In this document: positions 46,880 to 64,000 of the stretch, in pieces
Numbering within the stretch: position 1 is the first letter of the stretch
Layout of the letters: every line of letters starts with the position of its first letter
NCBI RefSeq assembly: GCF_056712565.1
Contig: NZ_CM160072.1
Reading direction: 5' to 3' (one strand)
Length of the DNA stretch: 64,000 nt
Position numbers and translations under genes: made by a program
The notes under the pieces: generated by a model
What the model was told of the DNA's origin: nothing
Seen by the model: the letters and a program-made list of their open reading frames with translations, nothing else
Databases searched by the model: none

Positions 46880-48054
46880 TTTTTTGCATCCGGATGAAAT
46901 AAGTCAGTATCTTTAATTTTAAAGTCTTCTAGAGTTGCAGTATGTGCATTATTCCATAATTCATATCCATCTAAACCATTCGGTTCACCTGTTTCCCATC
47001 CTAAATTACAATAACGCTGATACTCGCGGCATTCATGAGTATAGTAGTTCAGATCGTATTTTTCAGGAAGCAATTCTTTATTTGCTATTTTTTTTAGCCT
47101 TGAAATCATTACATCATTAGCTGGATCATGATCAAATCTGGAGATATGCTTTTCAACAATAGCGATACCTTCCCTATTGATTGTTACGCCATCTATCGTC
47201 AGGTTTTCTATTGGACCACCGGCAAGGTCGGGATTAAATGGTCTTCCTGATACTGCTCCTCTGGCTCCGAAATGCTCAAATGATTCCAAATCAGGGAATC
47301 TCATTCTTCCCAGAACAACTCCAGCAACTATTGAAGCACCAGCGATGAGTAACCCTTTGTTATCCATAACTTGATCGTAACCAGCAGGTGCATCTCCTCC
47401 CAACTTGTTTGCTGTTTCCCTGAATCCTTCGATATTCCCATTGTATATGCCGCCAGCAGCAAGCAGTCTGCCAACCGCTTTACTATTGAGTGTTTTGAGG
47501 CCATTATTATCTTTAGTTTTTTGCCGTGGTATAAACAGACGGTTGTAGTTATCGGGAAATGCCAAATGACTAAATTCAGTATTAGCAATCAGATGCCTGG
47601 AGAGTATATATTCATAACTGACAGTGATGGTTTCTGTATCCAGATTGTTCTCAGTAAACAGGTGATTGATTGCTGATAAGAGCGCGCCGCGGAGTTGAAT
47701 GTTGTAATATTTCTCCTATCGACCAAATCTATTGATCCGATAGAAGTCAAACTCCATGAACAACTGCTCGTTATTGTTAATAGCGTTAATAAGTAACGGG
47801 GAGCTTTTGTCAATCAACTTACAGAAACTAAGGCCATGTAATTGTGACCCTTTGCCTGTATTCGTAATACTATTAGATAGCGAGAACGCGAAGATTTCAT
47901 CTTCATGGCCAATCTGCCAGCGATTACCTATTGATGCGCTCGTTCCGCAACGAGAGGAAATACATCCTTGTTGTTCTCCGGTTATGGTCAGGTAAATTTC
48001 ATCACTCATCTTTGATGAACTCTCTTTATTGCTTGATGTTTTAAAAATAAACAA
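46876..48054 (-). pseudogene. Hcp (T6SS tube protein) fused to a C-terminal extension domain, interrupted by in-frame TAG at 47716..47718
   Basis: N-terminal ORF matches Hcp (YLTITGEQQG..., LSFCKLIDKSSP); the frame continues past one TAG through the rest of the Hcp fold into the 229 aa domain; likely true start MSDEIYL at 48009. Confidence 0.6.
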
Positions 48055-48493
48055 TATTGCTATTTGTTTATAATTATTTACTCCTCAAGTTAATGGATTT
48101 AAATATGGGAAATAAAATGTTTCACTTTAGACCAGTTTTCATGAGGAAAATCTGTAATCATTAATAATAAACATGAATATTTTGCAGTGATTAATATTTG
48201 TTATGAATATAATCTATAACAATGAAGAGTTATCAGTTGTTCGGTGTATAGCCAGAGACGAGTTCAGTTTGTGATTTTTACAGGGCAGTTACAGCCGCAA
48301 AATTTTATGGCTGATTTCACCTTCCCCTCAAGCTTATCTTTCTTAAAAAGAGAAATAATTCTTAAATTCAAATAGTTATATACAATCTACTCTCTTTCTT
48401 GTGACTAGCTTCACATTTCATACTGATGCATTGGAATGAAATAAAATTTCATGAGATTTTGTGTTTGAGAAAAATTATTTCATTAGGTGTGAA

Positions 48494-49051
48494 ATGGACG
48501 CAAAGCTGTACATCACTGAGATCATCAATGAATTAACCTTCGTTAAGGACTCTATCCGTGAGGATGACTGCACCAAATTGATCGACGCTATTCAGCAAAG
48601 CCAGCGCGTTTTCTGCTATGGCCTGGGGCGTGCCGGCTTTTCCATGAAAGCCTTCACCATGCGCCTGATGCATATGGGCAAAGAGGTTTACTTCCTGACG
48701 GAAACCATTACGCCGAACTTTGGGCCTGGCGATCTGTTTATCGTTTCTTCCGCTTCCGGTGAGACAGCACAACTGGTGGCACTGGCGAAAAAAGCACGTC
48801 AGTTTGGCGGCGCTGTGGCGGTGTTAACCACGAATCGACACGCCACTATCACCGAGTTTGTCGACGTCATCGTGCAAATCAATGCCCCTTCCAAAAATCA
48901 AAAAGATTCTGTTTTCCGCTCGGCACAGCCGATGGCGTCGTTGTATGAGCAAGCTTTGCTGGTGATTGCCGATGCATTAGTGATGAAGATGGCTGCTGAA
49001 AGCGGTGCGCCGGAAAGTGAACTGTTTAAGCGCCACGCCAATCTGGAATAG
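48494..49051 (+). CDS. SIS-domain protein (6-phospho-3-hexuloisomerase-like sugar-phosphate isomerase)
   Basis: About 185 aa from ATG at 48494 preceded by AGGTG; SIS phosphosugar-binding pattern. Confidence 0.55.
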   Translation: MDAKLYITEIINELTFVKDSIREDDCTKLIDAIQQSQRVFCYGLGRAGFSMKAFTMRLMHMGKEVYFLTETITPNFGPGDLFIVSSASGETAQLVALAKKARQFGGAVAVLTTNRHATITEFVDVIVQINAPSKNQKDSVFRSAQPMASLYEQALLVIADALVMKMAAESGAPESELFKRHANLE

Positions 49052-49092
49052 TCGTCGCCGTTATTTGCTCGATACCCTACAGGAGAATAAAA

Positions 49093-50601
49093 ATGAGCAA
49101 AAAAATAACATCCTTGTTTAACTTCAAGAAGTTGCAGAAATTTTCTTCTGCTCTGATGTTACCAATCGCCATTCTTCCGGCGGCGGGTTTGATTTTAGCC
49201 ATCGGGATTTCATTTAACATTGAGCTGCTGGCGAATTGCGGCGGCCTGATTTTCGCCAACCTTCCTTTGCTGTTTTGTGTCGGTATTGTGATTGGCCTGA
49301 CAGGTGATGGTTCTTCATCACTTTCAGCGATTATCAGCTACATGATCATGAATGCCACGATGGGAACGCAACTTGGCATTACCGCGGAGTCCGTTGCAGC
49401 CAGTAACGGTGACTATGCGATGATCCTCGGGGTACCGACGTTACAAACGGGAGTGTTTGGCGGTTTGATTGTCGCCATCTTTGTTTATCTGCTCTATACC
49501 CGCTTCCACAATATTGAATTGCCTCAGTTTCTTGGTTTCTTCGGTGGAAAACGCTTTGTACCGATTATTACGGCGGTGGCGGCAATTATTGTCGGCTATT
49601 TATTGCCGTGGCTGTGGATACCGGTACAAAAAGGTCTGGCGTCGCTTTCAACGCTGGTGACCAGTGGGCATAACGCGAACTTCGCGGCCTTTATTTACGC
49701 CGTTGGCGAACGTTCGCTGATTCCTTTTGGCCTGCATCATATCTGGAACGTGCCGTTTTATTACAACTTTGGCGACTACATGACCAAATCCGGGCAACTG
49801 GTGACGGGCGATATTCCGGTGTTCTTTGCCCAATTGCGCGACGGTGTTCCGTTGACGGCGGGGTTGTTTATGACAGGTCGTTTCCCAATCATGATGTTTG
49901 CGTTACCTGCCGCCGCGTTGGCGATGTATCAGGAAGCAAAACCGGAACGTAAGGCGCTGATTAAAGGCCTTTTACTCTCCGGTGCGCTGACCACATTTGT
50001 TACCGGGATTACGGAGCCGCTGGAATATGCATTTTTGTTTGCAGCTCCGGTTCTCTACATCATTCACATCTTCTTATATGCCACTTCATTTGTGCTGATG
50101 AACATCCTGAATGTGCACATTGGTCATCCTTTTGCTGGCGGTCTTATTGATTTCGTACTGAATGGCGTTATGCCAAACCGCACGCCGTGGTATCTGGTGT
50201 TCCTGGCAGGCGCGGGCTATGCAGCGATTTACTACACCGTATTTCGGGTACTGATCCGCAAGTTGAATCTGAAAACACCGGGACGTGAGGATGAAGAGAT
50301 TGCCGTTGCAACCACATTAACGCGCGAAGAACGTCCATACCAAATCATCGAGGCAGTAGGTGGTTTCGACAATATCGAAGATGTGGATGCCTGCGCAACA
50401 CGCCTGAGGCTGGCGCTGGTAGACGATAAGAAAGTGAATGAAAAACGGCTGAAGGAGTTGGGGGCTGCGGGTTTAGTGAAACTGGGTGATGGCGGTGTAC
50501 AGGTGATATTTGGCGGCAAATCGCAAATCCTGCGCGACGAAATCAAAACCGTAATGAGCAGACCGCGCCCGACAGAAATGACAGTGGCCTGTGCTAACTA
50601 A
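49093..50601 (+). CDS. PTS glucose-family EIICB component
   Basis: 502 aa; polytopic EIIC followed by C-terminal EIIB with CATRLR phosphorylation motif; AGGAG 7 nt upstream. Confidence 0.75.
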   Translation: MSKKITSLFNFKKLQKFSSALMLPIAILPAAGLILAIGISFNIELLANCGGLIFANLPLLFCVGIVIGLTGDGSSSLSAIISYMIMNATMGTQLGITAESVAASNGDYAMILGVPTLQTGVFGGLIVAIFVYLLYTRFHNIELPQFLGFFGGKRFVPIITAVAAIIVGYLLPWLWIPVQKGLASLSTLVTSGHNANFAAFIYAVGERSLIPFGLHHIWNVPFYYNFGDYMTKSGQLVTGDIPVFFAQLRDGVPLTAGLFMTGRFPIMMFALPAAALAMYQEAKPERKALIKGLLLSGALTTFVTGITEPLEYAFLFAAPVLYIIHIFLYATSFVLMNILNVHIGHPFAGGLIDFVLNGVMPNRTPWYLVFLAGAGYAAIYYTVFRVLIRKLNLKTPGREDEEIAVATTLTREERPYQIIEAVGGFDNIEDVDACATRLRLALVDDKKVNEKRLKELGAAGLVKLGDGGVQVIFGGKSQILRDEIKTVMSRPRPTEMTVACAN

Positions 50602-50651
50602 TTCGAGATTAGCGGGCTGGTTTCAGCCCGCCAGACAGAGAGAGCTGAAGT

Positions 50652-52649
50652 ATGAATTCACAATTACTGGCTAACGCCATCCGAATGTTAAGTGTTGATG
50701 CGATCCAGAAAGCGAACTCCGGTCATCCGGGCGCGCCGATGGGGATGGCGGATATTGCCGAAGTGGTCTGGCGTCGTCACCTGCGTCATAACCCAAAAAA
50801 TCCGCAGTGGTTTAACCGCGACCGCTATATTCAGTCGAACGGGCACGGTTCCATGTTGATTTACGCTTTGCTGCATCTTACAGGCTACGACCTGTCGATG
50901 GATGATATTCGCGACTTTCGTCAGCTCCACTCCCGCACGCCAGGTCATCCAGAATATGGTTATACGCCGGGTGTTGAAACCACCACCGGCCCGTTGGGGC
51001 AGGGCGTAGCTAATGCGGTGGGGATGGCGATTGCGGAGAAGGCGCTGGCGGCAGAATTTAACAAACCGGGCTTTAATATTGTTGATCATCACACATGGCT
51101 ATTTTTGGGTGATGGCTGCCTGATGGAAGGGATCTCCCACGAGGCCTGTGGTCTTGCAGGAACGCTGAAGCTCGGCAATCTGATTGCTATCTGGGACGAT
51201 AACGGTATTTCGATCGATGGTCACGTAGAAGGCTGGTTTGCTGAAGATACGGCTGCCCGTTTTCGTGCCTACGGCTGGCATGTCATTGAAGGCGTTGATG
51301 GTCACGATCCAGAAGAGGTAGATGCTGCGGTGCGTGAAGCGAAAAGCGTCACGGATAAGCCCAGTCTGCTGTGCTGCAAAACGATTATCGGTTTTGGTTC
51401 GCCAAATAAAGCCAACAGCCACGATTGCCACGGCTCGGCGCTGGGTGCAGATGAAGTGGCGCTGGTGCGTGAACGTCTGCAATGGCCGTATGCCCCTTTC
51501 GAAATTCCTGGTGAAATTTATGCCGCATGGGATGCGACCGAGAAAGGCGCGCAGGTTCAACAGGAATGGGATGCACTGTTTGCTGACTACGCGAAGCAGT
51601 GGCCGGAACTGGCGGCGGAGTTTACTCGTCGCATGAAGGGTGATTTGCCTGCTGGCTGGGCCGAGAATATGCAGAAATATGTGCACGATCTGCAATCCCA
51701 TCCGGCGGCGCTGGCAACCCGTCAGGTCAGCCAGAAATGCCTCAATCACTTCGCGGATATGCTGCCGGAACTGATGGGCGGCTCGGCGGACTTGTCGCCC
51801 TCTAACCTGACTCGCCATCAGAAATCGGTTGATTTCACCGGGGAAAATCCGGCGGGGAATTACATCTCCTATGGCGTGCGTGAATTTGGTATGTCGGCCA
51901 TCATGAACGGTCTTGCGCTGCATGGTGGGTTTATCCCTTACGGCGGTACTTTCCTGATGTTTATGGAATATGCGCGTAATGCACTGCGCATGGCGGCGCT
52001 GATGAAGATCCGCTCGGTGTTTGTTTATACCCACGATACCATCGGCCTGGGCGAAGACGGCCCGACACATCAGCCCGTTGAGCAACTGGCGTCGCTGCGT
52101 CTGACGCCGAATATGGAAACCTGGCGCGGTTGCGATCAGGTGGAAGTGGCGGTAGCCTGGCAACAGGCGATTGAGCGCAAAGATGGCCCAACGTCGTTGG
52201 TATTAACGCGCCAACCTCTGGCGCAACAGCCGCGCACCGCTGCACAGTTGGCAGAGATTGCGCGTGGTGGTTATGTACTGAGTGATTGTGACGGTCAGCC
52301 TGAGATGATCCTCATTTCTGCGGGTTCAGAGATTGAGTTAGTGGTCAGCGCCGCAAAAGCGTTAACGGAAGAAGGGCGTAAAGTTCGCGTGGTTTCCATG
52401 CCGTGTACCGAGCGTTTCGATAATCAGGATGCGGCGTACAAAGAGTCGGTATTGCCAAAAGCTGTACGCAAACGTCTGGCGGTAGAAGCCAGCATCGCCG
52501 GATTCTGGGAACGCTACGTCGGCCTGGACGGTAAAGTGATCGGCATGACGAGCTTTGGTGAGTCTGCTCCGGCGAATGTGTTGTTCAAACACTTTGGTTT
52601 TACGCCGGAAAATGTCCTGGCGCAGGCGCGTGAGCTACTGAACAGCTAA
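50652..52649 (+). CDS. transketolase paralog
   Basis: 665 aa; collinear with TktA by eye ([29 protein letters not shown], ThDP-binding regions). Confidence 0.85.
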
Positions 52650-52678
52650 ACCTGCACAAGGGGTGAAAGGATGACCTT

Positions 52679-53524
52679 TTACCCCTTGAAACGGGAGCCA
52701 AGAAACTCTTCACGGGTGCGGTATTTCTCGTAATGCGCCTTGTTTTTATACATAAACAACAGCACCAGCATATCAATAACGCCCATTGCCGGAACGCGAG
52801 TGGAGTCGAAGGCTTCAAAGAAGATTTTATCGCTGACCGCGGTATTGAGTTGATGGGTGGAGAGTTTTGATAACGGAGATTTAATATAGTTAGTGATACA
52901 AACGGATTTGGCACCGCGCTCTTTCACCACTTTAAAGATATCGACCATTAAGTTGGTGCTGCCAGAGTTAGAAATACCAATCGCCAGGTCACGTTTCCCC
53001 ATAGAATATGCCGCATTAATTTGCATTTCCGGGCTGACGTGAACAACGGTTTTTAATCCGAGTTGGCTGAATTTATAAGCACCATAAACGGCCAGAGGGT
53101 TTGAATTTCCGGCAGCAAAAAAGAAAATAGTGTCGCAATTAGCAAGTAGTTTGAGAATGGACTCAAGCACTTCGGCATTAAAAAATTGCGTTGATTGTAT
53201 TAAATCTTCGGCCTGTTTTTTTAATAAAAATGTGGCCAGCGACGTTATATCGGTAAAATCGGTATTATCAGGATAGCTATTGTCAGGATTAATGACTTCT
53301 TTTGCTAATGCAATTTTTAAATGGTAATAACCCTGATAACCTAATTTCTTACAGGTGCGTACGATAGTCGCTTCACTGGCATGGCTTTTTTCTGATAGTT
53401 CAGTGACACTATAGTTCACGACTTCATGTGCGTGGCTAAGAATATAGTCAGCGACCTTTTTTTCCGCCTGATGCAGTGTAGGGTAATTGCTTTGAATCAG
53501 ACTTTTTACGGTTATGTTATTCAT
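52679..53524 (-). CDS. RpiR/MurR-family transcriptional regulator (HTH plus SIS domain)
   Basis: 281 aa; N-terminal HTH, C-terminal SIS; convergent with the PTS-SIS-transketolase genes. Confidence 0.7.
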   Translation of the reverse strand: MNNITVKSLIQSNYPTLHQAEKKVADYILSHAHEVVNYSVTELSEKSHASEATIVRTCKKLGYQGYYHLKIALAKEVINPDNSYPDNTDFTDITSLATFLLKKQAEDLIQSTQFFNAEVLESILKLLANCDTIFFFAAGNSNPLAVYGAYKFSQLGLKTVVHVSPEMQINAAYSMGKRDLAIGISNSGSTNLMVDIFKVVKERGAKSVCITNYIKSPLSKLSTHQLNTAVSDKIFFEAFDSTRVPAMGVIDMLVLLFMYKNKAHYEKYRTREEFLGSRFKG

Positions 53525-53724
53525 AATTAGTAAATTTCATTCTGACAGAAAGTGCTGATTATAACATAGTTTTCAGGCGTGGATAGGTGTGAAAAAAATG
53601 AAGGTGTGCAGTGAACGTAATGATTAACAGACCGGTTAATTTTCATGAATTACGTCAACTGCACAAAAATAATTTAAACGGGTGCTCTAATTAAAGCAAA
53701 ACTTATATTTTTATCATTGTATTG

Positions 53725-54630
53725 TCAATTAAATACAAATTGTGTCATTAATTGTGGGTTTCTTAAATATTCTATGCACCACTGACAGGCTTTGCCCATA
53801 CCATCGGAACGAGCGGCAAGAAATAACTTGGTGGCGTGTTTATGTTCGCGCATTGGCTTTTTAAGCAATTTACCGCTGTTCAATAACGGCAATGCCAGAT
53901 GATGTGGAATATAACCAATACCGACGTTTTGTTCTATTAAGGCGATTGCCGTAGCGAAGTCAGGAACAAAAATGGGTTTTTGTCCTTCCAACAACCAGGC
54001 TTGCATCGGGGGGAAGTTAACGGAGGTATCGCGGATACAAATCGCTGGATAGTGACGCAATTCACTGTTTTCTAATGGATGCCGCTTCGCTGCCAGTGGG
54101 TGGAGTGGGCTGACGACAAAATCCCATTCCATTTGTCCGACCGGTTCGCTAATGATGCCTTCACTGCTTGGTACTGCATGAGGAGCACCGTAGACCAGAT
54201 CAGCACGCTTACTGTACAGCGCATCCCAGCAGCCGTTGTATACCTCAAGATCTACCGTCAGTGTTGTTGATGTGAATTGCCGTTCAAAATCTCGAATAAA
54301 TGCCACCAGCAAATCACCAGGAATAATATTGTTCACCGCAATTGTCAGTTCACGCTCAATACCATCGTGAATCAGCACTGTGTTGCGCTTTAATGCTTCC
54401 AGGTCGCCAAGAATAGTTTTGCTATGTTCGATGAAGTAACTTCCCGCTGGCGATAATTCAATATAGCGTCCCTTACGAATGAACAGTTCAACGCCCAGGC
54501 TCTCTTCCGCTTTCTTGATGGTGTAACTGATGGCGGAAGGGACTTTATTTAACTGCTCGGCTGCGGTGGTAATGCTCTGGTGTCTGGCGACCAGATGAAT
54601 AACACGAAGCGTTTCGTCTGAGATGAACAT
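53725..54630 (-). CDS. LysR-family transcriptional regulator
   Basis: 301 aa; N-terminal LysR-type HTH. Confidence 0.75.
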   Translation of the reverse strand: MFISDETLRVIHLVARHQSITTAAEQLNKVPSAISYTIKKAEESLGVELFIRKGRYIELSPAGSYFIEHSKTILGDLEALKRNTVLIHDGIERELTIAVNNIIPGDLLVAFIRDFERQFTSTTLTVDLEVYNGCWDALYSKRADLVYGAPHAVPSSEGIISEPVGQMEWDFVVSPLHPLAAKRHPLENSELRHYPAICIRDTSVNFPPMQAWLLEGQKPIFVPDFATAIALIEQNVGIGYIPHHLALPLLNSGKLLKKPMREHKHATKLFLAARSDGMGKACQWCIEYLRNPQLMTQFVFN

Positions 54631-54707
54631 AAGGCTCCCTGGTCAGTGGTAAAGTGGCTGAATCTCTCCAGATTCAGCCGTAATCATTGCCTGAGTATAC
54701 CCAGGAA

Positions 54708-55931
54708 TTAGCGGTGTTGACTTGCCCGACTGAGAATCGCATACGCGATACATGCCACCAGAATCGAGTCTACCGAAGGGATCGTCGTCAGGGTGAATAA
54801 GCCTTTTACGGTCATAAAGCCAACCGCTGCGCCTATGATCCATGCTGCGAATGTCAGCACTTTAATCTGTGACTCCTGGGCTAACACTGACTCTTGATAG
54901 CCATTACGGCGATAAAGGAAAAAGTCAGCGATATAAATTCCGGCAACGGGTGGCGTGGCGATACCCAGGAACAGCAGAAACGGAATAAACCACGCCATAA
55001 TATCCATACTGCCTACGATGGCGGAAAGGATACCCAGCGCCACGGTAATCTGCCATTTGGGAAAGCGGGTAAGCAGTGTGGAAACCACCAGCGTGCCCTG
55101 GAACATATTGCCCGCGTTACCGGTGACGCAGGCGAAAATCAACAACAGCGCCGCAGGCAGAACCGCACCGAATACCGCCATCGCACCCAGTAAAGATCCC
55201 TGACCACTAATGGCGCTCGGCGTTGCACCCGCCCAGTAGAGCAGAGGGTAGGCAACCAGAAACGTCACGCCTGCGGCAATCAGCGCATGTTTGCGGTTAT
55301 GCACAAAACTACCGAAATCAGGCAGTGTGGCAACCAGCACAATAATGGTGCCAACAACGGTGGAAACGGCGACACCTGTATTCATCTCCACAATCGCCGC
55401 TGGTACTGCCACTTCGGTATGGGTTGCCACATAGAGGATGTAACACAGCACCAGCGCGATAACCGGCACGGCAACCTGGGCAATTTTTCCCAGAACGGCA
55501 AAGCCAAATGCCGTAGAGGCGACAAAAATGACACAGCCAGCCGCCACTAACAGTGCCAGTGGAACTTCCAGTCCATGTTGAGCCAGTAAGTCATGTACCG
55601 AATGACCAAACATATTGGCGGTAACGGCAATCCAGCCGAACAGACTTATCGCCATCAAAATGTTAATGGCGATGGCCCCTTTTTCGCCAAACGAATATTT
55701 CACAATGCCATACGTTGGCAGGCGGGCTTTTTCTCCCACGCTAATGGTGATGGCTGAAAGTAAGGTCAGAATGACGCCGCCTAACAATACGACGCTAATT
55801 AAACTGCCGCTGGAAAGTTGATTGCCGAGGCTTGAGGATGACAACAGCACAGGTGTGACGGCAATACCCAGCAAAATCATGGCAATACGCAATCCTGATG
55901 CCGTATTCAGATTCTCTTCTTTTTTACGCAT
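54708..55931 (-). CDS. NCS1-family nucleobase permease (CodB-like)
   Basis: 407 aa, about 12 TM; resembles cytosine permease CodB around GIYIADFFLYRRNG. Confidence 0.65.
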   Translation of the reverse strand: MRKKEENLNTASGLRIAMILLGIAVTPVLLSSSSLGNQLSSGSLISVVLLGGVILTLLSAITISVGEKARLPTYGIVKYSFGEKGAIAINILMAISLFGWIAVTANMFGHSVHDLLAQHGLEVPLALLVAAGCVIFVASTAFGFAVLGKIAQVAVPVIALVLCYILYVATHTEVAVPAAIVEMNTGVAVSTVVGTIIVLVATLPDFGSFVHNRKHALIAAGVTFLVAYPLLYWAGATPSAISGQGSLLGAMAVFGAVLPAALLLIFACVTGNAGNMFQGTLVVSTLLTRFPKWQITVALGILSAIVGSMDIMAWFIPFLLFLGIATPPVAGIYIADFFLYRRNGYQESVLAQESQIKVLTFAAWIIGAAVGFMTVKGLFTLTTIPSVDSILVACIAYAILSRASQHR

Positions 55932-55956
55932 AGTATGTTCCCTTTATAAATGCGCG

Positions 55957-56346
55957 TTACACAGTATGAAAATGCCCGGTGTATTTGCGCCAGCTACCCA
56001 GTTCTGTAATTTCCCGTTGGCCTTCGGTCAGCCAGTTTTCTGCCAGTACGCCCAGCACTTCGCTACCATCGGCAAGTTTGATTTTGCCAATTGCCAGCCC
56101 AGCGGGTTCGCTCATTAACAGAGCGGCAAAACTGGCCAGCGGTAATTGCCAAATTTCTACGTCGACGTGTGTTCCTCCTTCATTCACGCGAATCATTCCC
56201 GGATGGCGATCATTAATACTCCACAACCGGTAATGGGCGTCAGTTCGGTCTTCACGGACAAAAATACCGCCCGCTTTTTGCATATTTGGGTTGAGTTCCA
56301 GGCCGCGCATCAGCGTTCCGTTAACGGCTAAAAGCGTTGTAGTCAT
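55957..56346 (-). CDS. gamma-glutamylcyclotransferase-like (AIG2 / allophanate hydrolase C-terminal domain-like) protein
   Basis: 129 aa; LAVNGTLMRG N-terminal motif typical of GGCT-fold proteins. Confidence 0.5.
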   Translation of the reverse strand: MTTTLLAVNGTLMRGLELNPNMQKAGGIFVREDRTDAHYRLWSINDRHPGMIRVNEGGTHVDVEIWQLPLASFAALLMSEPAGLAIGKIKLADGSEVLGVLAENWLTEGQREITELGSWRKYTGHFHTV

Positions 56347-56362
56347 TGTGTTCTCCAGAGAA

Positions 56363-57319
56363 TTAAAGGGTTATCCATGTACCGCTCTGATGCGCCAGGG
56401 CTGCTTTTATGGTTTGCGGTGAAGTAATCAGGCCGCTGGCCTGTTTGCCTTGTTGCTGGCTGGCATTGATGAAATCAACAATGGCTTCCACTTTGGGTTG
56501 CATACTGCCGACACCAAACTGACCTTCCCGCAACAGCGTTTGCGCTTCGGCAACGCTGATAGCGTCGAGCCACTGTTGTTGTGGTGTACCAAAGTTAATC
56601 GCTACTTTTTCTACACCGGTGGGGATCACCAGCAGATCTGCGCCTAACTGACTGGCGAGCAGCGCGGAGGCCAGATCTTTATCGATCACGGCTTCTACAC
56701 CTTTCAGTTGTTGCCCGTCTCGCACCACCGGAATACCGCCGCCGCCGCAGGCAATAACCAGATATCCCTGGCGCACCAGGTGAGCGATGGTGTCGTGCTC
56801 AATAATTTCCAGTGGTGCAGGAGAGGGAACTGTACGCCGCCAACCACGCCCGGCGTCCTCCATCAGCGTCCAGCCGAGTTGTTGTTGGCGTTGTTGGGCC
56901 GTTGCTTCATCGAGAAACGCGCCAATTGGTTTACTGGGGCTGGCGAAAGCATCGTCATGTGGGCTGACTCGCGTTTGTGTCACCAGGGCAATTACCGGTT
57001 TGTTTATGCCACGGCGAGCCAATTCGTTATGCAGCGCTTTCTGGAACATGTAGCCAATTGCACCTTGTGTATCACCCACGGCGTAATCAAGTGGAACCGG
57101 AGAAACTTCGTTACTGGCGAGTTCAGAGCGGCGCAGAATAAAGCCCACCTGCGGGCCATTACCGTGGGTTAGTACCAGGTCCCATCCGGCTTCAACCATA
57201 TCAACGATATGTTGCACGCTTTCCATCACTGCAACATATTGATCGGGAATACTATTGCGTTGCTCGTCCTGAATGAGCGCATTGCCGCCAACCGCGACGA
57301 CAGCCAGTGGCTTAACCAT
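56363..57319 (-). CDS. carbamate kinase
   Basis: Start at MVKPLAVVAVGGNAL (318 aa), overlapping the upstream stop; carbamate kinase family pattern. Confidence 0.75.
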   Translation of the reverse strand: MVKPLAVVAVGGNALIQDEQRNSIPDQYVAVMESVQHIVDMVEAGWDLVLTHGNGPQVGFILRRSELASNEVSPVPLDYAVGDTQGAIGYMFQKALHNELARRGINKPVIALVTQTRVSPHDDAFASPSKPIGAFLDEATAQQRQQQLGWTLMEDAGRGWRRTVPSPAPLEIIEHDTIAHLVRQGYLVIACGGGGIPVVRDGQQLKGVEAVIDKDLASALLASQLGADLLVIPTGVEKVAINFGTPQQQWLDAISVAEAQTLLREGQFGVGSMQPKVEAIVDFINASQQQGKQASGLITSPQTIKAALAHQSGTWITL

Positions 57320-58736
57320 GATGGTTCTCCTTTGCGACGATCTCCGCCAGTGCACGTACAGCGGCGACAAAACAGGCCATCGGCGCAGTGGTGATCCCGG
57401 CACCAATTTGCCCGACCCCCGCTTGTTTGTGGGCGATACCCGTATTGATGACCGGTAAAATGCCGCGATCGGTCACTTTACGCGCATCAATTCCTGCTGC
57501 GGTGGGGGCAAAATTGAGGGCTGGAAGTGTAAATGCGGGGTTACCGCCGAGGGTGATGGCTTGCATCCGACGGCTGTTATTGGTGGCATCGGCAGGGGTG
57601 CCTCCCACAAATTTGACGATCGCCGGAGACGACGCCATCGCGAAGCCACCCATACCTGCGGTTTCAGTAATTGCGCTATCACCCAGGTCAGCAGCAGCGT
57701 CGTCAACGCCAAATCCGGGGAAGAACAGACCTTCAACGGCATTGGCAGGAGCCTGGAACCAGCGATCGCTAGTACCGGAAAGCCGAATACCAAAACTCAC
57801 CCCGTTACGCGCCATCACCGTAACCATTGAACTGAACGGTACATTGGCGGCGGCATCCATCATTGCTTTACAGGCGGCCATCGACAGATTGAGGAAGAAG
57901 TGATCGTTACCGGTGATAAATGCCACGACGCGCTGGATATGTTCCTGTGGAAGAGAGCAGGCCAGCAATGCCGGGAGCAGGCGCTTAATCAGCAAACCGG
58001 TAGCGGCAGCATTGCGGTTATGAACTTCATCCCCCATATGCAGCGCCTGCGCCATTAATGGCTTGAGTTCCAGCTCGCCGTGTTGTGCGATTGCTGCTTT
58101 CATTGCCGGCGCCAGTTCATCGCGCATCCAGGCCAGACGATTGAGAACTTCATCGTTATTGGCGCCAAAACGGAGAACCTTACCCAGACCTTCATTGAAA
58201 TTGCTAAAAGTACGATGGCCGTTGGTTTTGTTTTCTACCACCCATAACGGCATCGACGGGCTGATGATGCCTGCCATTGGGCCAACCGCGTGATAATGAT
58301 GACAAGGGGCAAGGTCGATTTCGCCTGCGTTTATTTGGTTTTCAGCGTCTTGCTGGCTGGTGGCCCAACCTTCGTACAGCATGGCACCAATAATCGCCCC
58401 TTTTACCGGACCACACATCTCTTCCCAGGCAATCGGCGGGCCAGAGTGCAAAATACGTTTTTGTTCAGCCATTGCTGGAATGGCCTCTTTAGCGAGCATG
58501 ACATCCACCAGCATGGGCTGTGCTTCGAGATAACGTGTCATGGCGATTTGGTTGGCATTTTCTACCAGGGGATGACGTAGCAACGATGCCAGATCCAATC
58601 CAGCGTCAATATCGCCTTGTGCTGGTGGCTGCCAGTTGAGTGCAATTGCGCTTCCCCCGGCATGTTGAATATTGTCAGCAAAACTGTGTAGTCCCGCGTT
58701 CACAACCTTCAAAGGCTGATTAAATAAGGTATTCAT
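57312..58736 (-). CDS. DUF1116-family protein (YlbE-like)
   Basis: 474 aa; start immediately follows the FdrA-like stop; assignment mainly from size and operon context. Confidence 0.5.
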   Translation of the reverse strand: MNTLFNQPLKVVNAGLHSFADNIQHAGGSAIALNWQPPAQGDIDAGLDLASLLRHPLVENANQIAMTRYLEAQPMLVDVMLAKEAIPAMAEQKRILHSGPPIAWEEMCGPVKGAIIGAMLYEGWATSQQDAENQINAGEIDLAPCHHYHAVGPMAGIISPSMPLWVVENKTNGHRTFSNFNEGLGKVLRFGANNDEVLNRLAWMRDELAPAMKAAIAQHGELELKPLMAQALHMGDEVHNRNAAATGLLIKRLLPALLACSLPQEHIQRVVAFITGNDHFFLNLSMAACKAMMDAAANVPFSSMVTVMARNGVSFGIRLSGTSDRWFQAPANAVEGLFFPGFGVDDAAADLGDSAITETAGMGGFAMASSPAIVKFVGGTPADATNNSRRMQAITLGGNPAFTLPALNFAPTAAGIDARKVTDRGILPVINTGIAHKQAGVGQIGAGITTAPMACFVAAVRALAEIVAKENHHG

Positions 58737-60292
58737 GCGTTTAGCCCCTTTTTCTGCAACTGAGTCTGTGCAACGGTGCTGGCCCATAGCGCCGCCTGTG
58801 CATTGCTGCTGGCGATGATGACCCCTGCATTTTGTAGTGCTCTTATCTGCTGACTGCGTATTTGCGGATCAGCTTCCGTTCCGCAAACGTGCGCAATCAG
58901 CAACGGTGCGTTATTCATGTCGATGTGTGAAAGTTGGTCCAGTAATTCGCTGGCAGGCGCCGTGGAAGCGCCATAACCAAGTACCAGGTCGAATAACACG
59001 ACGGCAGTGTGTGAGTCGTTGAGTTCGTTGAGCAGACGTTGATTGCGCAGAGTCGGGTCGATCATTGGATGCGGTTTGCCACGGGTGAAATCATCGTCGC
59101 CCATATCGATCAACGTGTGATCTTCGCTTTGCCAGATATTTGCCAGAGCACGATTACCCGCAACTGGCGTATTGGAAGCTGCGCTGAATCCCTTTTGTTG
59201 GCAGATAAGTTGCGCTTCGTAGCAGAAGGTTCCTCCGGCGAAAACACCGCGTATCGCCTGGCGATGGGCTGGCAGGCGCTGACAGGCGTTTTGTAACATT
59301 GTGAGATCGGCGCAGGAAATCTCGGTCTCGACAGCCGGAAGTGGCTGAGCATTCAGTAACGCTACGGCGATATTTGCGGCGCTGGCAAGTGTGGTGGCCG
59401 CGGTGATATTGGGACGTGCCAGATCATGCGGATTCGCACCGAGGAAATTCACCACCACGGGTTTTCCACAAGCCTCGGCGCGCTCCAGAATAGTCTGGGC
59501 AACGATCGGTGAAGGCGGTTTTGAAATCAGCACAATCACGCGAGTTTCATCGTCTTGCGCCAGCGCATCTAAAGCGAAGAGCATCGATATTCCACCAATC
59601 TCTTCACTGAGATCATGCCCACCGGTTCCCAACGCCTGAGAAATACCCGCTCCGAGCTGGTCGATTCGGCAAGTCACTTCCTGTAGCCCGGTGCCTGACG
59701 CGCCAATAACACCAATTGCTCCGCGTTTCACCACATTAGCGAAGCCTAACGGAATGCCGTTAACAATGGCGGTTCCACAGTCAGGTCCCATTACGATGCG
59801 CTGACGTTCTCGGGCAAGCGTTTTGATAGATTTTTCCTGCCCGATACTGACGTTATCGCTGAACATCATCACGTTCATTCCGAGGTTTAACGCTTTAATT
59901 GCTTCGGCGGCGGCGTAGTCTCCCGGTACAGAAATGAGTGCCAGGTTGGCTTCGGGTTCGGCTTCCAGTGCCATTTCCAGGCTGACCTTTTCCGGTGTTT
60001 TAATGCCACTATCCGTTTCATCATCGGGTTTGCTGGTCAGACGTTGCTGGGCCAGTACCAGTGCTTCATTGCAAATATCTTCTTCACCCATGACTGCAAT
60101 CACTAAATCATTGGGACTGGCGTTGATTTCGTTACCCAGACCCGCATCGCGCAATTGTTCGAGATTATTGGGCGTTCCCATGACGACCGAGGCCTGTTGA
60201 ATACCGGGCAACTTGCTGATTTGCGCGGAAATCTGCATCAGAGAAACTGAGTCCTGATAAAGATTACTGAAAACTTTATATTTAACTTTCAT
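58733..60292 (-). CDS. FdrA-family protein (succinyl-CoA synthetase alpha-like fold)
   Basis: 519 aa; blocks YQDSVSLM, MMFSDNV, MGPDCGT, GVIGASGTG, PHPMIDPTLRNQ match E. coli FdrA. Confidence 0.75.
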   Translation of the reverse strand: MKVKYKVFSNLYQDSVSLMQISAQISKLPGIQQASVVMGTPNNLEQLRDAGLGNEINASPNDLVIAVMGEEDICNEALVLAQQRLTSKPDDETDSGIKTPEKVSLEMALEAEPEANLALISVPGDYAAAEAIKALNLGMNVMMFSDNVSIGQEKSIKTLARERQRIVMGPDCGTAIVNGIPLGFANVVKRGAIGVIGASGTGLQEVTCRIDQLGAGISQALGTGGHDLSEEIGGISMLFALDALAQDDETRVIVLISKPPSPIVAQTILERAEACGKPVVVNFLGANPHDLARPNITAATTLASAANIAVALLNAQPLPAVETEISCADLTMLQNACQRLPAHRQAIRGVFAGGTFCYEAQLICQQKGFSAASNTPVAGNRALANIWQSEDHTLIDMGDDDFTRGKPHPMIDPTLRNQRLLNELNDSHTAVVLFDLVLGYGASTAPASELLDQLSHIDMNNAPLLIAHVCGTEADPQIRSQQIRALQNAGVIIASSNAQAALWASTVAQTQLQKKGLNA

Positions 60293-60386
60293 GCTGTTAC
60301 GCCTGTTTCATTCCGCCCGATAGCAAAATTCGGGCAAAGCATCCCCGTGTAGCCCCATAAACGGGCTACGGGAGAAAAGGTTGAAA

Positions 60387-61247
60387 TCAATTCATGGTGT
60401 TCAGGGTTCGAAAGCCATGCAGCATTCCTGCAAGGCAATCTACTCCTGACGTTGCGCCAAATTGCATGACCTGTTCTGCACAGGATGCGATTGTCATTGC
60501 CGATGCGCTCCCAACCAGTTGTGCGAGTAACTGGCAAATCGGTTCTGAAAAATGTCCCTGAAGCGCACGCTCCAGATAATGACGACTGATATCCGTGGTG
60601 TTGTGCGCATGTTGATCAATTGCCTGCTGCAACCGGTATTGATGATCGGCAAGTGGTGCAGGGAGTTGCCATAACCAGAGCGCTGCCAGATAGCCCAACA
60701 AATAGTCATCTCCATCGGGCGTTAAGCCTTTACCAAAGCCGATCAGTTGTGGCACCTGGCGTTCCAGCGCATCTGGATGCTCCATAATTGCTAATCCCTG
60801 GTGCGTGAGACTATCCGGCAGGTGCAATGTGCTTTGAACGTTATGTTCCAGACAAAATAAAAGCCGTTGCGATGCCATCGTTGGGTAGTGCTGGAAAACC
60901 AAAGGGAATGCCTCAAGTGTCAGCATTCTCCCCACAAATGGCGACTGCCAGAGCGTTGCGTTTTCGAGCGCCACACAAAATCGAGGTGTCCGCAGTAAGC
61001 CTTGGGTTAACTGAATGGGATCTGAATGGGCAATCTCTCTTCGCCAGTCCCAACATTCAGGTAGCCAGACTCTGGCAGCATCAGGGAGATTCAGATACGT
61101 TTGCGCACACAACAGAGTGATGAATGTTCCCGCGTCTGAATACAGATTTACCGCATGTTTAAAAGCGCTATGTAGACGTAAATCTTGCGTTTCATTCTGC
61201 GGGAAAAGATATCCCAACGACGATGCGCAAAGCGTAACCTGTACCAT
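60387..61247 (-). CDS. hypothetical protein, possibly DUF2877 (YlbF-like)
   Basis: 286 aa; assignment inferred from position beside FdrA-like and DUF1116-like genes, not from a recognised motif. Confidence 0.4.
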   Translation of the reverse strand: MVQVTLCASSLGYLFPQNETQDLRLHSAFKHAVNLYSDAGTFITLLCAQTYLNLPDAARVWLPECWDWRREIAHSDPIQLTQGLLRTPRFCVALENATLWQSPFVGRMLTLEAFPLVFQHYPTMASQRLLFCLEHNVQSTLHLPDSLTHQGLAIMEHPDALERQVPQLIGFGKGLTPDGDDYLLGYLAALWLWQLPAPLADHQYRLQQAIDQHAHNTTDISRHYLERALQGHFSEPICQLLAQLVGSASAMTIASCAEQVMQFGATSGVDCLAGMLHGFRTLNTMN

Positions 61248-61252
61248 CGGCG

Positions 61253-61921
61253 TTAGCCTTCCAGACCTGCAATAATGGCTTTGGAATCAGTAACCCAACC
61301 GAAAATGGCACCTTGTGCTTTGATCATCTCGAGGGCGTATTTCTGGAATTCCGGGAAATAGGAGCCGACACAATCTTCCGGGATAATGCATTCATAGCCA
61401 CGATCATTTGCTTCGCGCACGGTGGTGGTTACGCAAACTTCGGTTGTTACACCACAAACTATCAGCGTCTTGATACCGTGGTTTTGCAAAATCAGATGTA
61501 AGTCGGTTTGATAAAACGCGCCTTTGCCAGGCTTATCAATCACCGGTTCGCCTGCCACCGGGTACAGTTCAGGAATGATGTCATGACCTGCTTCACCTCT
61601 GACCAGAATGCGTCCCATCGGTCCTGGTTCACCAATAAAGGTTTTTCCGCCGCGCGTCAGTTTGGCTGGCGGGCAGTCGCTTAAGTCTGCACGATGGCCT
61701 TCACGAGTATGAATAACCATAATTCCTTTTTGACGTGCGGCTGCCAGCACCTCTGTACATGGTGCGATAGCCGTGCGTACCAGTGAAACATCATTGCCCA
61801 GAGCCTCACCGAAGCCCCCTGCTTCGACAAAGTCACGCTGCATGTCGATCATGACCAGTGCAGTTGTGCGCGGATCAAAAGGTAATTCAAAGGGTTGAGC
61901 CTGAAAAATGGATTGCGTCAT
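61253..61921 (-). CDS. isochorismatase-family cysteine hydrolase (RutB/biuret hydrolase-like amidohydrolase)
   Basis: 222 aa; VMIDMQRDF start and VCGVTTEVCV catalytic-Cys region typical of the family; first gene of the operon. Confidence 0.7.
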   Translation of the reverse strand: MTQSIFQAQPFELPFDPRTTALVMIDMQRDFVEAGGFGEALGNDVSLVRTAIAPCTEVLAAARQKGIMVIHTREGHRADLSDCPPAKLTRGGKTFIGEPGPMGRILVRGEAGHDIIPELYPVAGEPVIDKPGKGAFYQTDLHLILQNHGIKTLIVCGVTTEVCVTTTVREANDRGYECIIPEDCVGSYFPEFQKYALEMIKAQGAIFGWVTDSKAIIAGLEG

Positions 61922-62177
61922 GGTAAATCTCCTGTCTGATGTTTAAACGATCCAGTTGTTCTGAGAACGAGTATTCAGGAGAAAAGCGACACAAAACAGG
62001 AAAAAAGTTTGCCGCACAGCAACGAAATTTTTGCATTCAGCAGGTGGTGTGATGACGAATGTGAAGGGAGTCAAAGAGTGGCATACAGCAACAAATTTTT
62101 TGATGCTGTATGGTTTTGAGATTAAAAAAATCGTTGAAATTGTGTGAGCTTAATCATCAGATTTAGCGACTATGGCG

Positions 62178-62987
62178 TTACTTTTTAACACCATACTGTG
62201 TAAACCATTCCAACATTCGCTGCCAGCCGTCTTTCGCAGATTCGGCATGATAGCTCGGACGATAATCGGCGTTGAACGCATGCCCTGCATCCGGGTACAC
62301 GATAATCTCTGCTTTCGCGTTTGCTGCCCGCAGCGCCTGGCGCATCGTTTCCACGCTCTCTTGCGGAATGCTGTTATCCTGGCCGCCATATAAGCCGAGA
62401 ACCGGAGCGTTAAGATCGGTTGCGATATCAACAGGTTGTTTCGGTGAATTCAGCGACTTATCGCCCGTCAGTTTGCCGTACCACGCCACTGCGGCTTTTA
62501 GCTGTGGATTATGCGCGGCATACAGCCAGGTGATACGTCCACCCCAGCAGAATCCGGTGATCATTAAACGATGAACATCGCCGCCGTTGCGGGAAGCCCA
62601 ACTGGCGACATGATCGAGATCGGCCAGCACCTGCGAGTCAGGCACTTTTGCTACCAGACCGCTAAGCAACGTGGGGATATCGGCAAAATCATTCGGATCG
62701 CCTTCGCGGAAGTAAAGTTCAGGTGCGATAGCCAGATACCCCTCCAGCGCCAGACGGCGACAAATGTCGCGGATATGTTCATGCACGCCAAAAATTTCCT
62801 GCACTACAATGACCACTGGCAGTGGGCCATCGCTTTGCTTTGGTCTGGCATGGTAAGCAGGCATGTTATCCCCTTGTGAAGGGATAGAGGTGAAGCCCGC
62901 CACAATCGCGTCGTCCGGAGTCTGAACGATGGTCGAAGCGAGAGGCGATGCAGCAGGTGCAAATCCAGATTGTTGTGTTGTTGCCAT
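62178..62987 (-). CDS. ysgA: dienelactone hydrolase-family protein
   Basis: Start placed at MATTQQSGF with GGAG about 8 nt upstream; conserved neighbour of udp. Confidence 0.7.
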   Translation of the reverse strand: MATTQQSGFAPAASPLASTIVQTPDDAIVAGFTSIPSQGDNMPAYHARPKQSDGPLPVVIVVQEIFGVHEHIRDICRRLALEGYLAIAPELYFREGDPNDFADIPTLLSGLVAKVPDSQVLADLDHVASWASRNGGDVHRLMITGFCWGGRITWLYAAHNPQLKAAVAWYGKLTGDKSLNSPKQPVDIATDLNAPVLGLYGGQDNSIPQESVETMRQALRAANAKAEIIVYPDAGHAFNADYRPSYHAESAKDGWQRMLEWFTQYGVKK

Positions 62988-63107
62988 GGTATTCTCCGTA
63001 CCCTTATAAAAATGTTGCGCAATGTTAACTATAGTCAGCATGCAACAAATCACATTGCCTGAATCGGCTCATCTTTTATGCAGTCCTGCAGAATGAAGAG
63101 TGATTTA

Positions 63108-63174
63108 TGTGATTTGCATCACTTTTGATGGGTAAATTTATGCAACACATTTTCGTCATGGTGATGAGTATCAC
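63108..63174. promoter_or_regulatory. udp promoter region with two CRP sites (CytR/CRP-type architecture)
   Basis: TGTGAtttgcaTCACT at 63108..63123 and gGTGAtgagtaTCACg at 63159..63174, centres about 51 bp apart. Confidence 0.6.
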
Positions 63175-63248
63175 GAAAAAATGTTAAACCCTTCGGTAAA
63201 GTGTCTTTTTGCTTCTTCTGACTAAACCGATTCACAGAGGAGTTGTAT

Positions 63249-64000
63249 ATGTCCAAGTCTGATGTTTTTCATCTCGGCCTCACTAAAAACGATTTACAAG
63301 GGGCTACGCTTGCCATCGTCCCTGGCGACCCGGATCGTGTGGAAAAGATCGCCGCGCTGATGGATAAGCCGGTTAAGCTGGCATCTCACCGCGAATTCAC
63401 CACCTGGCGTGCAGAGCTGGATGGTAAACCTGTTATCGTCTGCTCTACCGGTATCGGCGGCCCGTCTACCTCTATTGCTGTTGAAGAGCTGGCACAGCTG
63501 GGCATTCGCACCTTCCTGCGTATCGGTACAACGGGCGCTATTCAGCCGCATATTAATGTGGGTGATGTCCTGGTTACCACGGCGTCTGTTCGTCTGGATG
63601 GCGCGAGCCTGCACTTCGCACCGCTGGAATTCCCGGCTGTCGCTGATTTCGAATGTACGACTGCGCTGGTTGAAGCTGCGAAATCCATTGGCGCGACGAC
63701 TCACGTTGGCGTGACAGCTTCTTCTGATACCTTCTACCCAGGTCAGGAACGTTACGATACTTACTCTGGTCGCGTAGTTCGTCACTTTAAAGGTTCTATG
63801 GAAGAGTGGCAGGCGATGGGCGTAATGAACTATGAAATGGAATCTGCAACCCTGCTGACCATGTGTGCAAGTCAGGGCCTGCGTGCCGGTATGGTAGCGG
63901 GGGTTATCGTTAACCGCACCCAGCAAGAGATCCCGAATGCTGAGACGATGAAACAAACCGAAAGCCATGCGGTGAAAATCGTGGTGGAAGCGGCGCGTCG
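63249..64000 (+). CDS. udp: uridine phosphorylase (3' end beyond window)
   Basis: ATG at 63249; [31 protein letters not shown]; open to end of window. Confidence 0.85.

Follow-up and report, generated by a model that had tools for sequence, protein, structure and literature searches.

An eight-gene operon of Escherichia coli as a candidate catabolic module for triuret and possibly biuret

Introduction

Which nitrogen compound is consumed by an operon that the Escherichia coli type strain carries and K-12 lacks? The stretch analysed here (hereafter the window) comprises 64,000 nucleotides of contig NZ_CM160072.1 in NCBI RefSeq assembly GCF_056712565.1, and the chromosome of ATCC 11775, the type strain, is 100% identical to it. 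A preliminary description of the window had recognised seven co-directional minus-strand genes at positions 54708–61921 with a LysR gene downstream, encoding an isochorismatase-like hydrolase, DUF2877-, FdrA- and DUF1116-like proteins, a carbamate kinase, a GGCT-like protein and an NCS1 permease in this order, and it could not name the substrate. The gene positions agree with that layout. We consider it probable that the eight genes constitute a regulated catabolic module for "polyurets", namely triuret and possibly biuret. Residue signatures, cross-phylum synteny and a phenotype of strain Nissle 1917 now narrow the substrate to triuret, biuret or carboxybiuret.

Profile searches back the family assignments of the preliminary description for FdrA, DUF1116, DUF2877, carbamate kinase, the isochorismatase-like protein and NCS1. 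The genes are as follows (coordinates in the window, in the direction of transcription).

61253–61921, minus strand: TrtA-type isochorismatase-family cysteine hydrolase (222 aa)
60387–61247, minus strand: DUF2877/AllH-family subunit (286 aa; Pfam AllH PF11392, E 5e-27)
58733–60292, minus strand: FdrA/AllF-family subunit, succinyl-CoA-synthetase-alpha-like (519 aa; NCBIfam FdrA 499 bits, cut-off 433; Pfam Ligase_CoA and CoA_binding)
57312–58736 (RefSeq start), minus strand: DUF1116/AllG-family subunit (474 aa; Pfam AllG PF06545, E 5e-98)
56363–57319 (RefSeq start), minus strand: carbamate kinase (318 aa; TIGR00746 arcC 366 bits, cut-off 358; PRK12352 377 bits, cut-off 266)
55957–56346, minus strand: stand-alone allophanate-hydrolase C-terminal domain (AH-C), GGCT-like fold (129 aa; Pfam PF21986)
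54708–55931, minus strand: CodB-like NCS1 permease, presumed importer (407 aa; NCBIfam cytosine permease, E 2e-42)
53725–54630, minus strand: LysR-type regulator, PunR/AllS-like (NCBIfam PunR 289 bits and AllS 214 bits, both under cut-off)

The gaps along the first seven genes are 5, 94, -4, -8, 16 and 25 nt, so that the DUF1116 gene runs into the end of the FdrA gene by 4 nt and the kinase gene into the end of the DUF1116 gene by 8 nt. The LysR gene follows the permease gene on the same strand after 77 nt. A longer open reading frame (ORF) for DUF1116, starting at 58787, was rejected since homologues give it no support.

Results

The hydrolase bears the residue signature of triuret hydrolases

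Among proteins of solved structure, the hydrolase is closest to Herbaspirillum TrtA, a triuret hydrolase (6XIX; 270 bits, 58% identity), followed at a modest margin by the biuret hydrolase BiuH (6AZO; 237 bits, 53%) and then by RutB (105 bits). Six positions split TrtA from BiuH across more than 500 sequences, with F35, N41, A134, E160, Y187 and I205 in the former and Y, Y, S, D, T and V in the latter (PMC7948467). The hydrolase has the TrtA state at all six of these positions and the BiuH state at none. It belongs to the isochorismatase-like fold family and retains the catalytic Asp-Lys-Cys triad together with the ligand residues E72, K132 and Q202. Its score against the NCBIfam BiuH model is 280 bits, below the cut-off of 370, and lies near that of a canonical Nitrospira TrtA (252 bits), while a true BiuH reaches 414 bits. 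Judged by these features, the enzyme is classed as TrtA-type, neither a generic isochorismatase nor RutB. The preliminary description, which had placed it among isochorismatase-like hydrolases including RutB and biuret hydrolase, was correct as to family and is refined by the 58% identity and the six of six residues.

These comparisons bear on an earlier proposal for the same island, in which the CodB-like permease imports cytosine or uracil and a RutB-like enzyme cuts a ureido intermediate, as in Rut-type pyrimidine scavenging. It was put forward for the region "GR 29", in which the hydrolase shares 32% identity with RutB and the permease 26.5% with CodB (PMC12928451). Such a role is highly improbable, since the hydrolase reaches 112 bits against a cut-off of 378 in the RutB model TIGR03614, TrtA and BiuH are much closer, and no RutA-type ring-opening enzyme occurs in the island or in related loci. 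Furthermore, no rut genes lie nearby in the island.

A third paralogous transcarbamylase set

The three proteins encoded after the hydrolase belong to the families of AllF, AllG and AllH, which in E. coli K-12 act with the catabolic carbamate kinase AllK and are encoded by allFGHK (PMC11326118, PMC9843812). The preliminary description had treated the AllFGH role as merely proposed, but purified AllF-AllG-AllH was shown in 2024 to have oxamic transcarbamylase activity, and oxalurate is its proven substrate (PMC11326118). Identities to AllF, AllG, AllH and AllK are 42% for FdrA, 49% for DUF1116, 24% for DUF2877 and 42% for the kinase; those to YahF, YahG, YahE and YahI are 43%, 46%, 27% and 50%, respectively. 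Because identities to both sets are just 24–50%, the island genes are a third paralogous set beside AllFGHK and YahEFGI and no recent duplicate of K-12 genes. The expectation that the FdrA, DUF1116 and kinase proteins would not be near-identical to the K-12 allantoin copies was borne out (42%, 49% and 42% identity). Their designation as a second, differently ordered copy needs correction to a third set, since K-12 also has yahE-yahF-yahG-yahI, whose order is the same as DUF2877-FdrA-DUF1116-kinase in the window.

A stand-alone allophanate hydrolase C-terminal domain

The 129-aa protein aligns solely with the last approximately 125 residues of allophanate hydrolase models (positions about 440–563; E 4e-30). 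It is 100% identical to PDB entry 5C5Z and also matches the C-terminal domains of 4GYS and 4ISS. Its description as GGCT-like is right at the level of fold, and more precisely it is the allophanate hydrolase C-domain PF21986. As to membership in the allophanate hydrolases, the N-terminal amidase-signature domain is absent and the C-domain alone is present. The name "glutamyl-tRNA amidotransferase", given to the protein in 5C5Z and in many RefSeq records, is therefore a misnomer inherited from the amidase domain that it lacks; newer runs of the Prokaryotic Genome Annotation Pipeline (PGAP) label it "allophanate hydrolase-related protein". When 54 AH-C sequences comprising stand-alone, fused and full-length AtzF versions were compared, 29 residues, including Y39, R40, R53, E64, D93 and E103, were conserved in at least 90%, which argues for a retained catalytic or binding role. 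N-carboxycarbamate is reportedly the substrate that the C-domain of allophanate hydrolase decarboxylates, as described by Fan et al. (JBC 2013). The term "dicarboxyammonia" is mentioned in PMC6219798. A kinship of the 129-aa protein with the carboxybiuret decarboxylase TrtB was considered but dismissed, as TrtB falls with AtzH/HpxZ into the NTF2-like family.

Association of the genes across phyla

A scan with one genome per species yielded 80 loci encoding a DUF1116 protein 54–87% identical to that of the window. In 79 of the 80, this protein has a higher pairwise identity to its counterpart in the window than to either AllG or YahG; pairwise identity was used because a midpoint-rooted neighbour-joining tree of DUF1116 with one AllG and one YahG could not resolve the clades. 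The loci come from Enterobacterales (Citrobacter, Lelliottia, Serratia, Edwardsiella, Rahnella, Budvicia), Burkholderiales (Caballeronia, Paraburkholderia), Silvimonas, Xanthomonadales (Dyella), Vibrionaceae (Vibrio, Photobacterium), Mycolicibacterium, comammox-type Nitrospira (L036, L041, L049), Chloroflexi, Coriobacteriia and Bacilli (Halolactibacillus). Spurious antisense "families" 8 and 11, which arose from greedy ORF calling in high-GC loci, were discarded, and tblastn and hidden Markov model (HMM) results were used.

Gene contexts were counted in the 58 loci whose flanks reach at least 5 kb upstream and at least 3 kb downstream. A hydrolase with the full TrtA signature is present in 48 of them, at a median distance of 1.6 kb from fdrA; the kinase is found in 52 and an AH-C homologue in 47. 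Since TrtA genes occur in 1–2% of genomes (PMC7948467), the association between hydrolase and FdrA is far from chance. BiuH and the amidase domain of allophanate hydrolase are both absent within 10 kb in approximately 40 of the 48 loci, including all of the enterobacterial, Burkholderiales and mycobacterial ones. As for allantoin genes, allC was found in none of the 80 loci and an allD-like gene in a single weak match, so no oxalurate supply is seen nearby. DUF2877 was considered as a universal partner and rejected, since the HMM search finds it in 49 of the 80 loci.

Three arrangements are informative about the AH-C domain and the fate of the hydrolase product. In Nitrospira locus L049, a packed same-strand array reads GntR-DUF2877-FdrA-DUF1116-carbamate kinase-ABC transporter-BiuH-TrtA-AH-C (131 aa). 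No allophanate amidase is present in this array, which leaves the FdrA set as the sole candidate consumer of allophanate or carboxybiuret there. In nine loci, five of which also have a TrtA-type hydrolase, full-length AtzF replaces the stand-alone AH-C, and this replacement fits allophanate as an intermediate. Finally, kinase and AH-C are fused in one ORF through a linker of approximately 20 residues in seven Mycolicibacterium/Mycobacterium loci (L028, 11419–12771; L030, L031, L032, L034, L037 and L065) and in one metagenome-assembled genome (MAG) of Verrucomicrobia (L029). The fusion ties AH-C to the carbamoyl phosphate/carbamate end of the pathway.

Similar clusters of comammox Nitrospira and ammonia-oxidising archaea have been read as two separate pathways, one for biuret and one for oxalurate (PMC12625717). 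Transferred to the island, the hydrolase and AH-C would act on triuret or biuret, and FdrA/DUF1116/DUF2877 with the kinase would form a second, independent oxamic transcarbamylase for oxalurate. No other substrate is proven for the enzyme family, and oxaluric acid, according to a passage of PMC11782772, is also a urate oxidation product. We regard this separation as quite unlikely, since both parts belong to one operon whose genes are closely spaced or coupled in translation, co-occur in 48 of the 58 loci across phyla, and move together as one plasmid unit flanked by insertion sequences (IS). No oxalurate-producing allC or allD lies nearby, and E. coli already possesses AllFGHK, to which the island set is just 24–49% identical. 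Moreover, because neither BiuH nor the AtzF amidase is encoded in the cluster, E. coli could not process the hydrolase product any further unless another enzyme consumed it.

Alternatively, the hydrolase may deamidate another acyl-urea amide, such as oxaluramide or a different urate or pyrimidine oxidation product, and deliver oxalurate or a close analogue to the transcarbamylase. The 58% identity to TrtA leaves room for such a substrate, oxalurate is a known substrate of the transcarbamylase family, and the regulator resembles the purine-related PunR and AllS. The retention of the full TrtA ligand and specificity signature makes this very unlikely, as does the steady pairing with allophanate hydrolase domains, whether stand-alone, kinase-fused or in full-length AtzF, which points to allophanate/N-carboxy chemistry and not to oxamate; no oxamate-handling gene was seen.

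Two kinds of related loci differ from this pattern. In Huaxiibacter chinensis (L009, 3850–10500), a DUF2877-FdrA-DUF1116-kinase-LysR cluster is devoid of hydrolase, AH-C and CodB, and an NCS2 xanthine-type permease lies immediately upstream. Four betaproteobacterial MAG loci (L042, L045, L057, L059) have the FdrA set and an allophanate hydrolase gene, full-length in three of them and a 299-aa ORF in L042, with no TrtA-type hydrolase.

Proposed pathway

The substrates and the order of the steps given here are inferred from observed gene content, families, TrtA signature, synteny, fusion and phenotype correlation. The LysR protein would turn the operon on (step 1), and the NCS1 permease would take up a planar, nucleobase-like compound (step 2). 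The TrtA-type hydrolase would then cut one terminal amide, converting triuret to 1-carboxybiuret and NH3 (step 3). The complex of FdrA, AllG-like and AllH-like subunits may phosphorolyse the terminal N-carbamoyl group, turning carboxybiuret and phosphate into carbamoyl phosphate and allophanate (step 4a), and would probably act again on allophanate and phosphate to give carbamoyl phosphate and carbamate (step 4b); where full-length AtzF exists, this enzyme would take allophanate instead. Oxalurate (H2N-CO-NH-CO-COO-), 1-carboxybiuret (H2N-CO-NH-CO-NH-COO-) and allophanate (H2N-CO-NH-COO-) are all anionic N-carbamoyl compounds. Phosphorolysis of the latter two is proposed because they are close analogues of oxalurate, the AllFGH substrate. 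Carbamate kinase would convert carbamoyl phosphate and ADP to ATP and carbamate (step 5).

In the least certain step, AH-C would handle an N-carboxylated product, which could be carbamate, N-carboxycarbamate or carboxybiuret (step 6). Carbamate, carboxybiuret and allophanate are N-carboxylates chemically analogous to N-carboxycarbamate. Action on carbamate or a close relative is favoured because AH-C is fused to the kinase; a role as carboxybiuret decarboxylase fits equally because of the 4-nt overlap with trtA in Nitrospira. As a net result, all four triuret nitrogens would be released as ammonia with a yield of up to two ATP per triuret. No urea stage would be involved, and urea is not usable by E. 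coli. The preliminary description had suggested that an amidohydrolase, a carbamoyltransferase and a kinase degrade an imported N-carbamoyl compound with recovery of ATP, and the evidence gathered here is consistent with it.

Permease, regulator and upstream region

The permease matches the NCBIfam cytosine permease model over residues 14–405 with 146 bits, against an equivalog cut-off of 326, and is accordingly assigned to the NCS1 superfamily. A homologue occupies the equivalent position in 23 enterobacterial, Burkholderiales and Vibrionaceae loci. The LysR gene is syntenic in 22 loci and accompanies the other seven genes on the IS-flanked plasmid copies.

A conserved membrane protein of approximately 520 aa with about 12 predicted membrane segments replaces or joins the CodB-like permease in 17 related clusters, including L024 (12804–14402, plus strand), L025, L027, L006, L033, L040, L044, L052–L054, L056, L066, L077, L082 and L083. 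It has no sequence match in Pfam, NCBIfam or PDB. Its AlphaFold model (predicted local distance difference test, pLDDT, 82) shows a 7+7 inverted-repeat fold as in UraA/SVCT/SLC26/AzgA. From this model, the protein seems to represent a branch of nucleobase/anion transporters that has gone unrecognised, and it is a candidate importer of triuret or ureides.

One further feature precedes the hydrolase gene.

61922–62177, minus strand: putative promoter/operator region upstream of the hydrolase gene (motifs and ribosome-binding site read from the sequence)

This region contains two tandem copies of a unit in which TCACA is followed after approximately 40 nt by CA(A/T)CAAAAATTT(C)GTTGCTG; the second half of the unit can also be written CAnCAAAAATTTnGTTGCTG. 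A conserved CTGAATACTC box is present, and an AGGAG ribosome-binding site lies 8 nt ahead of the hydrolase ATG. The motifs recur in six enterobacterial genera, among them Citrobacter, Edwardsiella, Serratia, Budvicia and Rahnella, as well as in the E. coli copy on plasmids, and they are probably a LysR operator and promoter elements. A promoter and terminator scan of 53400–62400 gave counts no higher than those in shuffled sequences, with no consensus sigma-70 promoter and no convincing internal terminator. In an Rfam scan of 52000–64000 (E <= 0.1), no RNA element was found, which argues that no riboswitch (for guanidine, for example) controls the operon.

Genomic island and plasmid copies

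The operon lies in an insertion of approximately 16 kb between metE and ysgA, which are adjacent in K-12 (39 bp apart); K-12 is without the island. The insertion has been named the "tkt1" island, corresponds to "GR 29" of the BEN2908 genome, and is linked with extraintestinal pathogenic E. coli (ExPEC) of phylogroup B2 (PMC12928451). Among 5426 complete E. coli genomes, 1559 carry the cluster. In PLSDB, 82 conjugative plasmids, 78 of them from E. coli and four from Klebsiella, bear an allele with 94.5% identity that comprises exactly eight genes, from the hydrolase to LysR; seven of 12 plasmid records, among those listed, are of chicken or duck origin. In pR2-2 (L086), a chicken plasmid and the only plasmid studied in detail, the block occupies 7982–16160, has IS elements on both sides, and adjoins the eitABCD iron-uptake genes. 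Because the plasmid allele spans exactly hydrolase to LysR, the functional and mobile unit is the eight genes, the LysR gene included.

The remainder of the island, between metE and the LysR gene (approximately 45000–53524 of the window), contains a tssD (Hcp) pseudogene that has an internal stop, a pair of small hypothetical genes, and hxlB, a ptsG-like gene and tkt (the published "tkt1"; PMC12928451) with a divergent RpiR regulator. The GC content falls to 38–44% at the RpiR/LysR junction (53000–54500).

Phenotypes and links to the host

Nissle 1917 carries the cluster as ECOLIN_RS22025–22060, with identical hydrolase, DUF2877, kinase and AH-C proteins. When biuret was supplied as sole nitrogen source in Biolog PM3, Nissle 1917 gave a weak response in four of four tests (w/w/w/w) and K-12 in none of four, with urea negative in both strains; the genome-scale model of that study has no gene or reaction accounting for the biuret result (PMC7924626). 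Commercial biuret contains approximately 1 mol% triuret (PMC7948467), and for this reason the weak signal is compatible both with a triuret-specific enzyme that consumes this impurity and with biuret itself being used slowly.

The phenotype thus bears on the possibility that biuret is the physiological substrate. In that case the hydrolase, as a BiuH or a generalist, would make allophanate directly, and the FdrA-type complex would phosphorolyse allophanate only, yielding carbamoyl phosphate and carbamate. BiuH is the top NCBIfam match of the hydrolase, the FdrA-linked hydrolases split from the canonical TrtA subgroup, and natural generalists such as RhdBiuH are known (PMC7948467), which together with the Nissle response in PM3 speak for this reading. 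Against it, the score is under the BiuH cut-off, and the hydrolase has the TrtA residue at all five second-shell positions that mark BiuH (Y, Y, D, T, V) as well as at A134. Single residue changes of TrtA towards BiuH created no biuret activity (PMC7948467), Nitrospira has a separate true BiuH adjoining TrtA, and the weak PM3 signal fits the triuret impurity of about 1%. Taken together, these points make biuret as the physiological substrate unlikely, and we retain triuret as the favoured substrate.

The Nissle 1917 assembly NZ_CP007799.1 (L090) also contains, at 4549846–4555710, a priA-rpmE-yiiX-metJ segment three times in tandem, with truncated priA and metB fragments; this triplication is either a true tandem amplification or an assembly artefact.

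A second hint comes from a transposon screen of the adherent-invasive E. coli (AIEC) strain NRG857c, in which "carbamate kinase NRG857_19070" was a gut fitness gene in vivo in mice and was interpreted as belonging to arginine/pyrimidine biosynthesis (PMC8016931). The cluster kinase in NRG857c is NRG857_RS19505 (L087, 17297–18253). The offset from old to new locus tags is +195 at 1.90 Mb and extrapolates to approximately +414 at 4.05 Mb, which places the old tag near 19090, and the 250 kb examined around it contain no other kinase. By this extrapolation and the lack of another kinase nearby, NRG857_19070 is very probably the kinase of the cluster.

Triuret has been described as the peroxynitrite-specific product of urate oxidation and is present in human urine. 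Its precursor, uric acid, is excreted by birds.

Discussion

Several points weigh against a triuret pathway as outlined above. The TrtA-signature hydrolase is absent from 10 of the 58 loci, and the FdrA-linked hydrolases form a separate subgroup with 66–91% mutual identity and 55–63% identity to Herbaspirillum TrtA. Because the window enzyme is just 58% identical to TrtA and these hydrolases stand apart as a subgroup, the substrate may be a different, though related, compound. Characterised TrtA scarcely acts on biuret, and the Nissle 1917 biuret signal may reflect triuret impurity, wider specificity or unrelated genes, given that Nissle 1917 and K-12 differ by approximately 1 Mb. In the mycobacterial loci, the HMM search finds no DUF2877 gene within 10 kb, though AllFGH needs this subunit in vivo. 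The fate of allophanate in clusters with AH-C only has no explanation unless the transcarbamylase accepts allophanate, and N-carboxycarbamate, the proposed AH-C substrate, would not arise without the amidase domain. Finally, co-located FdrA genes have been treated as a separate oxalurate pathway (PMC12625717).

More tentatively, and with a likelihood somewhat short of even, we propose that this FdrA/AllG/AllH clade may be an undescribed carboxybiuret/allophanate:phosphate carbamoyltransferase. With the TrtA-type hydrolase and the kinase as partners, it would make up a widespread route by which triuret and biuret are broken down with conservation of ATP, past both urea and allophanate hydrolase, and it could feed B2 ExPEC and AIEC as well as plasmid-bearing, mostly poultry E. 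coli on triuret from host urate. The annotated genes, one solved structure, the central enzyme family (2024) and the co-location of biuH and trtA in nitrifiers are already known. In the searchable literature we found no account of a TrtA-type hydrolase feeding a phosphorolytic, ATP-yielding transcarbamylase and kinase, of its role in the B2 island, or of the link to biuret use by Nissle 1917; the searches led to just two papers in which the genes are annotated, and neither interprets them in this way.

If the cluster does act on polyurets as proposed above, this would give a function to the conserved block of the B2-associated "tkt1" island and to PDB 5C5Z, and it would explain an orphan phenotype, the biuret use that distinguishes Nissle 1917 from K-12. 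It would also provide a second substrate class for the three-subunit transcarbamylase family, with a hint for approaching yahEFGI, and an energy-conserving alternative to the hydrolytic TrtA-BiuH-AtzF pathway. For the host, a testable link would run from urate oxidation and inflammation, or from a urate-rich niche, to colonisation by ExPEC, AIEC and avian pathogenic E. coli (APEC). The module is carried by 82 conjugative plasmids, and among those sampled many come from poultry, which excrete urate. It is also found in soil, marine and nitrifying bacteria, which meet triuret and biuret as fertiliser impurities.

Comparison with known systems

The oxamic transcarbamylase AllFGH (EC 2.1.3.5) shares with the island the same three families, FdrA, AllG (PF06545) and AllH (PF11392), followed by a carbamate kinase in a single operon, and presumably the same chemistry, namely phosphorolysis of an N-acyl urea to carbamoyl phosphate and then ATP. 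The two differ in that the island set is a paralogue and not an ortholog, its identities being similar to those with YahF/G/E, and in gene order, with the AllH-type subunit first in the island. The allantoin/ureidoglycolate context is absent from the island, which adds a TrtA-type hydrolase, AH-C, a permease and a LysR regulator of its own; in place of oxalurate, carboxybiuret or allophanate is predicted as the substrate. With the uncharacterised K-12 cluster yahE-yahF-yahG-yahI-yahJ, the island has an identical order in common, as well as an amidohydrolase-type enzyme and a LysR gene (yahB) nearby. The identities are 27–50%, YahJ belongs to the metal-dependent amidohydrolase family and not to the isochorismatases, and the yah cluster has no AH-C.

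Compared with allophanate hydrolase (AtzF and the AH domain of DUR1,2; 4GYS, 4ISS), the 129-aa protein is homologous to the C-domain, whereas the N-terminal amidase-signature domain that hydrolyses allophanate is missing. The clusters of comammox Nitrospira and ammonia-oxidising archaea display the same association of BiuH/TrtA with FdrA/DUF1116/DUF2877 and the kinase, sometimes with codB; they have both TrtA and BiuH, an ABC transporter and GntR, while the E. coli form is minimal with one hydrolase (PMC12625717).

The TrtA-(TrtB)-BiuH-AtzF pathway of Herbaspirillum sp. BH-1 and Rhizobium leguminosarum (PMC7948467) shares with the island the type of its first enzyme, including the triad, the ligands and the six positions, and an AtzF-derived domain is present in both. 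Clustering of trtA with biuH and atzF is not seen in the E. coli island, and BiuH lies beside TrtA in the Nitrospira relatives. BiuH, TrtB and the AtzF amidase domain are absent from the island, where the transcarbamylase and carbamate kinase replace them. The downstream steps in the island would thus be phosphorolytic and ATP-yielding, in contrast to the purely hydrolytic route.

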